Shown here one piece after another: positions 30,001 through 36,000 of a DNA stretch of 64,000 nucleotides. Each line of letters opens with the position of its first letter. Position 1 is the stretch's first letter. Made by a program: the position numbers. Source of the DNA: Escherichia coli (GTDB lineage: Bacteria > Pseudomonadota > Gammaproteobacteria > Enterobacterales > Enterobacteriaceae); the NCBI RefSeq assembly GCF_041248615.1, contig NZ_CP158427.1. One strand, written 5' to 3'.

Positions 30001-33000
30001 AAAAAACGCAGCTACTGTCAGTTTGATTCGAAGCTGGCGCAGATAGTCCAGCAGCAGGGGCGCAACGGTCAGCTGCGTATCAGTTTTGGCCGTGCGAAGC
30101 ATCCTGACTGTCGGGGGATTACGGTTGATGAGCTGCAGAAAATTCAGTTCGACAGACTGGATTTCACTAACTTCTACGAAGACCTGATGAATAACCAGAA
30201 AATCCCGGACAGTGGCGTTCTGACGCAGAAAGTGAAAGAGCAGATTGCTGACCAGCTGAAACAGGCAGGACAGTAAGGTATGGAAAATAACCGGGGGAAA
30301 TGATGAAAGTCATATTCACGTCGAACCGTTTTATTGATTTTCTTATCCGGCTTTTGATTACAGCGATTGTCATTTCCCCGGTAATTATCTGGTCGTGGGA
30401 TACGGTAAAAGAAACCACGGCAGACGGGATGCTTGCCGCTGCTTTCGTTATCCTTTACTCCGGTGTGCTCCTGTTTATTCTGTATTTTTGTTTTTCTGCC
30501 CTGACTGGCCTGCAGAAAGCTGATGAAAGAAAAAATGATGAAAGGAATGAAGATGAATAAAGCATTACTGCCACTGTTACTCTGCTGCTTTATTTTTCCG
30601 GCGTCAGGGAAAGATGCAGGCTGGCAGTGGTATAACGAGAAAATAAATCCGAAGGAAAAAGAAAATAAACCTGTACCTGCAGCCCCCCGTCAGGAGCCGG
30701 ATATTATGCAGAAACTGGCCGCGCTGCAGACGGCAACAAAGCGGGCGCTGTACGAAGCCATTCTGTATCCCGGCGTGGATAATTTTGTGAAATATTTCCG
30801 GCTGCAGAATTACTGGACTCAGCAGGCCGGGCTTTTCACCATGAGTGCTAAAAAGGCCATGCTGGCACATCCCGAACTGGACTATAACCTGCAGTACAGC
30901 CATTACAACGGCACGGTACGGAACCAGCTGGCGGCAGACCAGGCGCAGCAGCGACAGGCCATTGCGAAACTGGCTGAACACTACGGCATCATGTTTTTTT
31001 ACCGGGGGCAGGACCCCATCGACGGGCAGCTGGCGCAGGTCATTAATGGCTTCCGGGATACGTATGGTCTGAGTGTTATTCCCGTTTCCGTGGATGGCGT
31101 GATTAATCCGCTGTTGCCGGATTCCCGGACTGACCAGGGGCAGGCGCAGCGCCTCGGCGTGAAATATTTCCCGGCCATGATGCTGGTTGACCCGAAACAG
31201 GGCAGTGTTCGCCCGTTATCATACGGCTTTATTTCGCAGGACGACCTGGCAAAACAATTCCTGAACGTTTCTGAAGATTTTAAACCAAATTTTTAATCGC
31301 GGATTTGATTTATGAGGCTTTGTTGAATAAATCGAACTTTTGCTGAGTTGAAGGATCAGATCACGTATCTTCCCGACAACGCAGACCGTTCCGTGGCAAA
31401 GCAAAAGTTCAAAATCACCAACTGGCCCACCTACAATAAAGCCCTCATCAACCGTGGCTCCATAACTTTCTGGCTGGATGATGAAGCTATTCAGGCCTGG
31501 TATGAGTCAGCAACACCTTCTTCACGAGGCAGACCTCAGCGCTATTCTGACCTTGCCATCACGACTGTGCTGGTCATTAAACGCGTATTCAGGCTGACCC
31601 TGCGCGCTGCGCAGGGCTTTATTGATTCCATTTTTTCTCTGATGAACGTTCCGCTACGCTGCCCGGATTACAGCTGCGTATTACCGTGAAGGAGATCGGT
31701 GAGTAACATCGATGGAGATCGGTTCGTGTCACTTTCACAGAACCGTTTTTAAATTACCTTCACTGATCTCCTTCGGTCAACGGAGATTGTATTTTCCGCA
31801 TTGATTCTCCTTTAAGTTCGATCTTGATACTGCCATGAACCAGTCGATCTAGGATGGCATCCGCATGTGTGGAGTCTCCGATCATTTTGTACCAGTTTTC
31901 CACCGGCAACTGGCTCACTACGATGATTGAGCCTCGTTGGTACATCAGATCCACTATTTCCAGCAGGTCGCTACGCTGTTCTGATGAGAGAGGTTCCAGC
32001 CCCCAGTCATCCAGAAGCAGCAGATCGCTATTATTCAGCCTGGTCAAAAGTTTGCTGTATCTTCCATCAGCATGCCCCTGATAGCACTGTTCCATCAGCG
32101 CTTTAAGGCGATAATAGTAGACCTTGTATCCCTGTCGGCAGGCATTATGACCAAGTGCACATGCCAGGAACGTTTTACCGCTGCCGGTGGCCCCGGTCAG
32201 TAAAATATTTTGTTTCAGGGTTAACCAGTTTCCCTGACTGAGTGAACGGATGAGGGCCCTGTCCAGCCCTCTATTGTTACGATAATCCAGCTTTGATAAC
32301 TCAGCATTAAGTCTGAACCGTGCATGTTTGATCAGACGCTCTGCCTTCCTGTTTTCACGGCAGGTTAGTTCTTCTGCTGTCAGTAATGACAGGCGTTCTT
32401 CGAAGCCCAGCTCCTGGTATGTGCCCGGCTGAGCAAGTTGCTTTTTAAGCGCATCACGGAAGCCGGTGAGTTTAAGTGCGGTCAGTTGTTCGTAAAGATG
32501 ATTCATCATTGGATCCCGTATCAGTGGTAATACTCACTGCCGCGTACGTTTTCGTGTTCCATCGTGGATAACAGATCTGGTTTTGGATCCTGAACAGGTT
32601 GTTTATCCAGACCTTTTTCCAGGATCGATTTAATACCTGACAGACGCCATACCTTTGTTTTCAGAGCTCTTGCACATGCTGCATTAAGTCTGGCTTTACT
32701 GTATTTTTTATGAAGGTTCAGGAGTCCAAGGCAGAAGCGATAGCTTTGTTCCGGATGTGGACGAGAGTTCAGTATATGAAGCACATAACTATGAGTTTCA
32801 CTGCCTATGTGCCCCGCCCATTCCAGAAGACGCTCTGGCGTCCAGGTGGCATGCTGTCGATGAGCTTCAGGCATGTGCTCGTTGCGGGTACTGTAGCCAT
32901 AAGTACGCTTGCGCGGGTGCACAGCAACCTCCTGCCCCTGATTGAAGAGTCTTACCAGTTCTCCGGAGATCCATGCTTCCAGTTGCTGGCCTAACAGCGA

Positions 33001-36000
33001 ACATGGAACCGAGTAGTAATGTTTGTCGATTTCCACGTGGTAATCGGCATGAACTCTGACTTTCTTCACCAGGGTGTAACTGTAACTGGCTTCAGGAAGA
33101 GGCTTCAGTGCGGGTTTATCAAGCTGGATGAAGAGTTCTGCACGTGAATAACCCAACTTCTGCATTATTTTGTTATTCAGTCTTTCCAGCAACTCCCGAA
33201 TGCGCTGATTAAGCGATGCAAGGCTGTAGAAGATCTCATGCCTGATTCGGGCCATGATCCAGCGTTCAACAACCTGAACGCCAACTTCAGCTTTGGCTTT
33301 ATCTTTCGGTTTACGTGGCCGCGCAGGCAAAACTGCGACATTATAATGCTCAAGCATCTGCTGGTAGGTAGGGTTAACGTCAGGATCATACTTACATGCC
33401 CTGGATGTGGCGCTTTTCAGATTGTCCGGAACAACAAGTTCAGGAACGCCACCCAACCACTGGAAGCAGCGAACATGACTCATCACCCAGTCTTCAAGCT
33501 GCTGAGACCAGGTGGCCTCTGCCCATGTGTAACTTGATGCCCCGAGAACAGCTACGATGACCTGAGCAGTTCTTATTTCTCCGGTCTCAGGGTCGGTAAC
33601 GCCAACGGTAGGTCCACAGTAATCAACGAAAAGTTTTTCGCCAGCTTTATGTACCTGACGCATTGATGGTGAAGTGGTTTTGAGCCATTCACGGTACATC
33701 CGGCAGTAATGGTTATAGCTGTAAAAACCGCCTGGATTACGCTCACAGTATTCTTCCCAGAGTAGCTGCAGCGTCACGCATTTATTACGCAGTTCCCGGT
33801 GTACTGTAGCCCAGTCAGGCAGAGAGTGCTTCTTCATCTTAACCTGGGTCTGAAGGAACGCATGTTTTAGTTTTGTATCATCCCATCCTGTAGGTAAGGG
33901 CCACTGCTTTATGCCAAGTTGAGCCGCCCGATTAGCATATCTGGATACAACGGAAGGGGAGATTGCAAGACTACGACCAATTTGTCGATGGCTGAGTCCA
34001 ACACCGTATTTAAGCCTAAGAATTTCTTTAAGTTTTCTCATAGAAATTGGAACTGTTGGCATAGGTATCCTTTACCGGAATGGCAAAAGATACAGATCAA
34101 CACACCTGTGAAGTTCCAATAACATTGATGGAGATCACTGAATAACAAAATGAGTCAAAAGTGATCTCCATCGATGTTATTCAGCGATCTGTTCAAATGT
34201 TATTACCCGATCTCGATGGAAGTTATTGAGTGATCTCCTTTCATGAAAATACGCAACAGCTGTGTCAGCAGGCGGGCAAAGTCGGTTAATGTCAGTTTCA
34301 AAACGCCCACCCGGGGTGAAATCGCACACCTGGTAATTGATTCCACCGGGCTGAAGGTCTTCGGTGAAGGCGAGTGGAAAGTCAAAAAGCATGGCCAGGA
34401 ACGCCGCCGTATCTGGCGTAAGCTGCATCTCGCCGTTGACAGTAAAACACATGAAATCATCTGCGCTGACCTGTCGCTGAACAACGTTACGGACTCAGAG
34501 GCCTTCCCCGGGTTAATCCGGCAAACCCACCGGAAAATCAGGTCAGCCGCCGCCGATGGCGCTTACGATACCCGGCTATGTCACGATGAACTGCGGCGTA
34601 AGAAAATCAGCGCGCTTATCCCTCCCCGAAAAGGTGCGGGTTACTGGCCCGGTGAATATGCAGACCGTAACCGTGCAGTGGCTAATCAGCGAATGACCGG
34701 GAGTAATGCGCGGTGGAAATGGACAACAGATTACAACCGTCGCTCGATAGCGGAAACGGCGATGTACCGGGTAAAACAGCTGTTCGGGGGTTCACTGACG
34801 CTGCGTGACTACGATGGTCAGGTTGCAGAGGCTATGGCCCTGGTACGAGCGCTGAACAAAATGACGAAAGCAGGTATGCCTGAAAGCGTGCGTATTGCCT
34901 GAAAACACAACCCGCTACGGGGGAGACTTACCCGAAATCTGATTTATTCAACAAAGCCGATTTATGAGTGAAGATTATTTGAAAATGTTTACAGGTGTTG
35001 TTCTGTTAATATTTGTCATTATTGCCGGTTATTTCTTTTCTGAGCGTAATGACAGGAAAATGTTTCTCCTGAGTTCACTGGTTTTCCTTGTTATTAATAT
35101 CGCGTGTTTATATGTGCTTACCGCCAGTCTCTGGTTTCTGTGTGGTGCAATTATGAATCAGGGCGCAGCAATGGTTGTTCCAATGGTTATTGGCTCATTA
35201 CCGAACGTTACGAGCTTCGACAGGTTCAGAAGAATATTTATCTGTATTATGTTGTCATCGGCATGGTCCGGAGTGATGTGGTTTTTTATAAGGGGCTTAT
35301 GACAGGCTAAGTCATATAAAACGGTAATAAAAACCATACAAAATAATGAGGTTGATCTGATTAATATCACACAAACGCGAATATTACAGACATGAATATT
35401 CTCATGTAAATAATAACCGGAGTTTAACATGATAAGTAAATGCAGATTCTCTTTACCCCGGCTTGATATTACGGGAATGTGGGTATTTTCTCTGGGTGTC
35501 TGGTTTCATATCGTCGCCCGTCTTGTTTACAGCAAACCCTGGATGGCTTTTTTTCTGGCGGAGTTGATTGCGGCCATCCTTGTGCTGTTCGGCGCATACC
35601 AGGTGCTGGATGCATGGATTGCCCGTGTCAGCCGGGAAGAGCGTGAGGCACTGGAAGCCAGGCAGCAGGCCATGATGGAAGGGCAGCAGGAGGGCGGACA
35701 TGTCTCTCACTAAATTACTGCCGGTCATTTTGTTGATGATGGCCACAGGTGTGCAGGCCTCCACCCGGGATGAAATTGAACGACTCTGGAATCCGCAGGG
35801 TATGGCCGTGCCGCCTGCACAACCGGCAGCAGACACATCAGCCAGAACAGAAAAGCCGGCTCCCCGCTGGTTCCGCCTCAGCAACGGCAGGCAGGTTAAC
35901 CTGGCCGACTGGAAGGTGGTGCTGTTTATGCAGGGGCGTTGCCCTTACTGTCACCAGTTTGACCCGGTACTGAAGCAGCTGGCACAGCAGTACGGCTTTT

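Follow-up and report, generated by a model that had tools for sequence, protein, structure and literature searches.

The question raised by this locus is how a large foreign insert came to lie inside the transfer operon of an F-type plasmid, and what it does to the genes beyond it. The window, a stretch of 64,000 nucleotides of DNA from Escherichia coli, is 100% identical to NZ_LT599826.1, plasmid p14408_1 of E. coli NRZ14408, an F-type plasmid (IncFIA/FIB/FIC) that MOB-suite labels as 'conjugative' from gene content alone. In this plasmid, an IS903B element lies within the 15 nt that separate traF from trbA and itself hosts an ISEc12 (Table 1), and the nested insert, with a total of 3643 bp, breaks none of the tra reading frames. 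Both elements have already been annotated in p14408_1 by RefSeq; the structure is real but ordinary, and reveals no new element, mechanism or system. The account that very probably explains it is the insertion of IS903B into the spacer followed by that of ISEc12, with lower expression of the distal tra genes and lower transfer to be expected rather than their complete loss.

Table 1. Features of the traF-trbA junction and the upstream RfaH loading site, in coordinates of the window.
Feature	Position	Strand	Evidence and remarks
ops element GGCGGTAGCGTG, RfaH loading site	22442..22453	+	traV-traR spacer; only exact occurrence of GGCGGTAGNNTG across the window
traF	30553..31296	+	stop TAA 31294-31296; last intact gene before the insert; ORF and RefSeq annotation; TraF against NCBIfam PRK13703, 480 bits (cut-off 294)
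IS903B left target duplication, 9 bp GATTTATGA	31307..31315		direct repeat
IS903B left part	31316..31674	+	terminal inverted repeat 31316-31333, exact GGCTTTGTTGAATAAATC (+); 5' third of transposase gene; last bases ACAGC 31670-31674, the ISEc12 target
ISEc12, 2581 bp, termini TG...CA	31675..34255	-	boundaries set by three independent copies
istB, helper AAA+ ATPase, 249 aa, intact	31760..32509	-	NF038214, 270 bits (cut-off 200); WP_001016257.1
istA, IS21-family transposase, 513 aa, intact	32521..34062	-	NF033546, 310.5 bits (cut-off 160); WP_001298859.1
IS903B right part	34256..34958	+	first bases are the duplicated ACAGC 34256-34260; 3' two-thirds of transposase gene; terminal inverted repeat 34941-34958, exact GGCTTTGTTGAATAAATC (-)
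IS903B right target duplication, 9 bp GATTTATGA	34959..34967		contains trbA ATG 34964-34966
trbA, 112 aa, ORF intact	34964..35302	+	PRK13712, 218 bits (cut-off 164); profile positions 1-112 aligned from residue 1

An earlier note on this DNA had described an IS903-like element at the traF/trbA junction, with inverted repeats and a 9-bp duplication whose right-hand copy contains the trbA ATG, and all of these coordinates have been confirmed. The 18-bp IS903 end GGCTTTGTTGAATAAATC occurs four times in the window, against 0.01 matches expected by chance, the other two occurrences belonging to a second IS903 copy. In the RefSeq annotation, the two halves of the element appear as pseudogenes, the left one as 'IS5/IS1182 family transposase, missing C-terminus' and the right one as 'IS903B family transposase, missing N-terminus'. 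Removal in silico of ISEc12 together with one ACAGC yields a 1057-bp IS903B with an uninterrupted transposase ORF, which matches many annotated intact IS903B copies at 100% from end to end and whose product scores 357 bits against NF033579 (DDE transposase, IS5 family; cut-off 140). The element shares with IS903B (IS5 family, IS903 group) the 18-bp ends, the length of 1057 bp, the 9-bp duplication and the single transposase ORF, and differs from a typical copy in being split by ISEc12, so that its transposase gene consists of two pseudogene halves. With regard to the target, the preferred motif of IS903 has been reported as WTTYA-N9-TRAAW (PMC2577343), and the flanks found here (GATTT and GTGAA) fit it at 4 of 10 positions, about 3.5 being expected by chance; the site was accordingly rejected as an IS903 hot spot. 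This misfit is no argument against membership of the IS903 group, because the motif is a preference and not a requirement. The second IS903-type element of the plasmid (61005-62061), which has an intact transposase and its own duplication GCCATGCGC, was considered as the donor of the IS903B and discarded, since 73 of its 1057 positions are different (93% identity).

Regarding the inner element, the proposal that a member of the IS21 family interrupts the transposase gene of IS903B holds, but the size of 2579 bp and the 7-bp duplication assigned to it do not. Three independent copies of ISEc12 start with TGCGTATT and end with AATACGCA, as does the copy in p14408_1, and each of them is flanked by a 5-bp duplication (ATAAC, TATAT and GGGGG). 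These boundaries rule out the 7-bp duplication with a 2579-bp element, and the true target duplication is ACAGC; the longer ACAGCTG, present at 31670-31676 and again at 34256-34262, looks duplicated because the terminal TG of ISEc12 happens to equal the next two bases of the target. The total of 3643 bp given earlier still holds, although its terms 2579 + 7 have to be replaced by 2581 + 5 (1057 + 2581 + 5 = 3643 bp). The copy studied here, with ist genes that run against the direction of the tra operon, shares with ISEc12 of the IS21 family the istA and istB genes, the TG...CA termini, the GGAGATC-containing repeats within both ends (D1-D6, I1 and I3-I9) and the 5-bp duplication, with nothing different of note, and other ISEc12 copies are 99.7-100% identical to it. 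This ISEc12 is an unremarkable, intact copy that happened to land in another insertion sequence.

The site without the insert is well represented among natural plasmids. When the whole insert and one copy of GATTTATGA are removed in silico, the resulting 649-bp junction is 100% identical to that of many plasmids, and it is covered over at least 80% of its length in 2224 records. For example, the sibling NZ_AP022365.1 matches at 100% over 10.3 kb on each side of the insert, the two matches overlapping by exactly 9 bp, and the junction is also uninterrupted in pEC_L8 (NC_014384.1), a plasmid reported to be self-transmissible. The uninterrupted junction that the earlier note proposed to seek in related plasmids is thus present, 100% identical, in many siblings free of the insertion sequences. 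The two transposition events postulated there are likewise borne out by the intact target duplications of both elements, by the exact restoration of both IS903B and the empty junction, and by family scores above the curated cut-offs; a chance origin of the structure is excluded because removal of the insert restores two known sequences exactly. On the other hand, the traF-IS903B junction was found in no record besides p14408_1 among 72,556 plasmids (PLSDB) and 5,426 complete E. coli genomes (RefSeq), and no other IS903B-ISEc12 junction was found in the same plasmids, in the other 5,425 complete E. coli genomes or in the rest of the NRZ14408 assembly. Since both junctions are unique to one record, the events are recent and strain-specific, and the nested insert identifies p14408_1 as a very recent offshoot of the widespread pEC_L8-type IncF lineage. 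No record in PLSDB or among the RefSeq complete E. coli genomes was found to have IS903B without ISEc12 between traF and trbA, as an intermediate would.

In the preferred order of events, the 1057-bp IS903B would have entered the 15-nt spacer, duplicating GATTTATGA together with the start codon of trbA, and ISEc12 would then have entered the IS903B transposase gene at about codon 110 in antisense orientation, leaving an IS903B that is presumably not autonomously mobile and an ISEc12 that is still intact. The reverse order, in which ISEc12 entered an IS903B elsewhere and the 3643-bp composite was then moved as a unit into the traF-trbA spacer by the transposase of another IS903 copy acting in trans, would produce an end structure indistinguishable from this one; both IS903B ends are intact, and the plasmid carries at least one further IS903-type element whose transposase is intact (61005-62061). 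It is nevertheless improbable, given that the IS903B-ISEc12 junction was seen nowhere else in the plasmids, genomes and assembly searched, that the other IS903 copy of the plasmid is only 93% identical, and that the IS903 transposase is said to act mainly in cis. An assembly artefact would place the insertion sequences wrongly in the tra operon, and both IS903B and ISEc12 are multi-copy repeats able to confuse an assembler, in a record that is moreover flagged linear; but a misjoin would neither yield perfect 9-bp and 5-bp duplications of the length typical of each element nor leave both interrupted sequences exactly restorable, and this explanation is hardly credible.

The nested insert would have two kinds of consequences for the operon. 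The more local one concerns trbA, which would be deprived of its native ribosome-binding context and no longer be closely coupled to traF: upstream of trbA, the sequence beyond -5 is the end of IS903B and the native GGA at -11 to -9 has been lost, while the left copy of GATTTATGA retains the native ribosome-binding context and the ATG, which now opens a 4-codon ORF (MRLC*). The trbA gene is reportedly non-essential. The wider consequence concerns transcription, as transcripts from PY, the single tra promoter, would have to traverse 3.6 kb of foreign, mostly untranslated sequence before reaching trbA, traQ, trbB, traH, traG, traD, traI and traX. Judging from the sequence, it is plausible that the distal tra genes rely on read-through, and that conjugation is perhaps reduced by the insert. 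A consensus scan showed no outward promoter facing trbA from the right part of IS903B, the promoter-like sites of the region numbering 5 against 5.7 expected.

How far such read-through would go depends on opposing signals. The ops element is on the sense strand and precedes the GTG of traR by 27 nt and the insert by 8.9 kb (the 12-nt consensus GGCGGTAGNNTG is expected 0.09 times per window), and RfaH/ops is required for transcription of the complete F-like tra operon (PMC7303359), so that read-through may exceed that of an ordinary operon. This upstream site may lessen the polarity of the insert, and both the transfer frequency and the expression of the distal tra genes would be expected to fall measurably rather than to be lost completely, because RNA polymerase should carry RfaH loaded at ops and RfaH suppresses Rho-dependent polarity, and because traS and traT have transcription of their own. 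The opposite outcome, a polarity strong enough for traQ, traH, traG, traD and traI to be effectively silent and for p14408_1 to be transfer-deficient or at best mobilisable with all its genes intact, is less likely. The sense RNA of the insert would be mostly untranslated over 3.6 kb and lacks an outward promoter in the consensus scan, and its sense strand contains 9 terminator-like hairpins where 4.2 ± 2.0 are expected, a modest excess (the best, at 31598-31616, has -16 kcal/mol and a broken U tract, and the three best, when folded, give indecisive z-scores from -1.1 to -2.3); such hairpins could halt even RfaH-modified polymerase, making polarity stronger than assumed. Insertions of Mu and of transposons in the F tra operon, moreover, are reportedly polar. 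Against strong polarity stands the ops/RfaH antitermination site upstream of the insert, and the occurrence of ISEc12, IS66-type elements and ISVsa5 inside otherwise intact tra operons of several natural F-type plasmids may also speak against it.

Three other plasmids carry ISEc12 within the tra operon: NZ_CP107148.1 between traN and trbE, NZ_CP135686.1 in trbJ and NZ_CP086621.1 in trbF. In all of them, as in p14408_1, the element is antisense to tra (four of four cases), and IS66-type elements and ISVsa5 lie within the tra operons of sibling plasmids. The cases in trbJ and trbF interrupt or truncate a tra gene, whereas the insert of p14408_1 differs from other natural tra-operon insertions in being intergenic and nested, with two elements and no tra gene broken. 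Another example of a natural insertion sequence in an F-type transfer region is finO::IS3 of the F plasmid, which alters conjugation behaviour by destroying a repressor and thereby derepressing transfer (PMC5102898); in contrast, the insert of p14408_1 sits within the operon and, if it has any effect, should reduce distal expression. A far-reaching interpretation, for which the odds are poor, is that internal ops/RfaH loading lets F-type tra operons withstand large insertions downstream of traR unusually well, and that insertion sequences are retained there as tuning devices. If true, this tolerance would explain the recurrence of ISEc12, IS66-type elements and IS903B between traN and traD in intact-looking operons, and such insertions might cut the cost of conjugation or the exposure to pilus phages with transfer preserved.

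Finally, p14408_1 represents a natural test of the tolerance of an F-type tra operon to a 3.6-kb intergenic insert, the importance of which is mostly local; and, should transfer prove defective, p14408_1 would pose a smaller risk of dissemination than tools based on gene content suggest.

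At the traF–trbA junction, a copy of IS903B is interrupted within its transposase gene by ISEc12, an element of the IS21 family. The IS903 ends, the duplication and the trbA ATG lie where the earlier note had placed them, as re-reading of the sequence confirmed, and their positions are collected in the table.

Coordinates of the nested insertion and of other features in the window
Feature	Position	Basis
traF stop TAA	31294-31296	sequence reading
Left target copy GATTTATGA	31307-31315	sequence reading
IS903B left end, 18-mer GGCTTTGTTGAATAAATC	starts 31316	sequence reading
IS903B right end, reverse complement of the 18-mer	ends 34958	sequence reading
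Right target copy GATTTATGA	34959-34967	sequence reading
ACAGCTG copies	31670-31676; 34256-34262	
ISEc12	31675-34255	boundaries of L003-L005 copies
trbA ATG, in the right target copy	34964	
Fusion ORF	34243-34902	
Top hairpin, sense strand	31598-31616	
ops element GGCGGTAGCGTG, sense strand	22442-22453	
Second IS903-type element	61005-62061	
psiA (RefSeq pseudogene)	about 11148-11910	
Short ssb-like ORF (RefSeq pseudogene)	about 7600-7800	

Across the whole window the 18-mer is found at four places (0.01 expected), two of which bound the second IS903-type element. In-silico deletion of ISEc12 and one ACAGC restores a 1057-bp element with an unbroken transposase ORF, identical over its full length (100%) to many copies annotated as IS903B. 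All five proteins considered exceed the curated NCBIfam cut-offs, the restored transposase scoring 357 bits against NF033579 (IS5 family; cut-off 140). The flanks agree with the IS903 target consensus at 4 of 10 positions, and the site is not a consensus target. An ATG from the ISEc12 end opens in frame a 219-aa fusion ORF, in which 7 IS-derived codons precede the last 212 aa of the IS903B transposase; expression of this ORF is doubtful, as no Shine-Dalgarno sequence is evident. The second IS903-type element is intact (1057 bp, 9-bp duplication GCCATGCGC) and only 93% identical to the nested copy (73 differences); it sits in a non-F segment with TrbM/KikA-family, H-NS-family and lytic transglycosylase genes, adjoining IS26 and an IS1 remnant.

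The inner element, named ISEc12 in RefSeq, encodes on the minus strand ORFs of 513 and 249 aa between the ACAGCTG copies, identified as IstA (NF033546, 310.5 bits, cut-off 160) and IstB (NF038214, 270 bits, cut-off 200), and its ends carry repeated GGAGATC-type motifs, as is typical of IS21-family termini. Its boundaries were set by aligning three independent copies from other F-type plasmids (L003, L004 and L005), all of which start with TGCGTATT and end with AATACGCA. Their flanking repeats are exactly 5 bp (ATAAC, TATAT and GGGGG), the sixth base matching in none, which rules out a 7-bp duplication. ISEc12 is therefore 2581 bp long here, TG...CA, with the duplication ACAGC; the apparent 7-bp repeat is explained by the next two target bases, TG, which are identical to the IS terminus. 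Thus the family and the repeat coordinates of the earlier note stand, and its boundaries (2579 bp, 7-bp repeat) were 2 bp off; the length sum closes as 1057 + 2581 + 5 = 3643. The other three copies, each with its own 5-bp duplication, occupy the traN/trbE spacer, trbJ and trbF (L003 3002-5582, L004 5068-7648, L005 5161-7741). All four insertions have their ist genes antisense to tra, too few cases for significance.

Removal of the whole 3643-bp insert and one target copy leaves a 649-bp traF–trbA junction, 100% identical to many plasmids and at least 80% covered in 2224 records, so that the uninterrupted junction that the earlier note had suggested seeking does exist. The 10.3 kb on either side are 100% identical to IS-free siblings; in one, NZ_AP022365.1, the two flank matches meet with a 9-bp overlap, that is, a single target copy. 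The exact restorations of IS903B and of this junction exclude chance, and an assembly artefact is very unlikely, as a misjoin would not yield two perfect duplications of element-specific lengths. With the duplications, they also bear out two successive transposition events. In the simplest history, IS903B would have landed first and ISEc12 would then have inserted into it. The same final structure would result if the composite had formed elsewhere and been mobilised in trans via its intact IS903 ends, but this order is less likely: the composite junction is found nowhere else in the plasmid and genome collections searched, the remaining NRZ14408 assembly included, the one further IS903-type copy within the window shares just 93% identity, and the IS903 transposase acts preferentially in cis.

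Positions 31000-35300 match plasmid p14408_1 (NZ_LT599826.1; 137 kb, IncFIA/FIB/FIC, MOBF relaxase, MPF_F mating-pair system) at 100% identity; its host, E. coli NRZ14408, is a clinical isolate. The plasmid is the sole record with the traF–IS903B or the IS903B–ISEc12 junction both in PLSDB (72,556 plasmids) and among 5,426 complete E. coli genomes; neither IS903B alone at this site nor a second composite was found in these collections. Because the junctions are unique and the flanks identical to siblings, both insertions are recent and strain-private. The window opens in the leading region (ssb, psiB), spans the complete tra operon (traM to traX, finO) and IncFII repA, and extends into a mosaic segment past repA. 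RefSeq lists psiA and a short ssb-like ORF as frameshifted pseudogenes, which could be genuine decay or sequencing indels. One of the IS-free siblings, pEC_L8 (NC_014384.1), is described as self-transmissible and as having a complete tra region (PMC2887853). Four further siblings with tra DNA at 100% identity to that of the window (NZ_MK295831.1, NZ_LS999561.1, NZ_CP013832.1 and NZ_KY749247.1) carry other IS within the operon: between trbA and traD the IS66-type elements ISEc23 or ISCro1, and in the traC–traF stretch ISVsa5.

IS903B and ISEc12 are both catalogued, with every defining feature tested present here, and RefSeq already annotates two IS903B/IS5 transposase pseudogene halves around istA and istB. 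Nested insertions, and IS in tra operons, are commonplace; the feature is thus ordinary and of low interest.

The insertion is intergenic and every tra ORF is undamaged. TraF scores 480 bits against PRK13703 (cut-off 294) and TrbA 218 bits against PRK13712 (cut-off 164), the latter aligned from residue 1, so that the ATG of its 112-aa ORF is the genuine trbA start. The ribosome-binding context native to trbA stays with the left target copy, but the ATG there now starts a 4-codon ORF; trbA itself keeps just 5 native upstream bases. With the GGA at -11..-9 and the 15-nt closeness to the traF stop lost, trbA translation is probably weakened. The gene is reportedly non-essential in F transfer. More consequential is transcription, which for traQ, traH, traG, traD and traI would have to pass through the insert. 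Polarity is favoured by a scan of the right part of IS903B, which gave no promoter-like site facing trbA, and by a modest enrichment of sense-strand terminator-like hairpins in the insert. The top hairpin (-16 kcal/mol, broken U tract), GC-rich, of 8 bp and followed by CUUUAUUGAUU, lies inside the IS903B transposase gene, in its 5' part, and is possibly a weak intrinsic terminator for tra read-through. RNA polymerase modified by RfaH withstands Rho-dependent termination. The exact RfaH ops element lies in the traV–traR spacer, 27 nt 5' of the traR GTG, and complete tra operon transcription requires RfaH and ops (PMC7303359). The functional reading of the earlier note, in which the distal genes must rely on read-through or on internal or IS-derived promoters and conjugation may be reduced or altered, seems reasonable but is qualified by RfaH/ops, which would counter polarity; distal tra expression would therefore be expected to be lowered rather than abolished.
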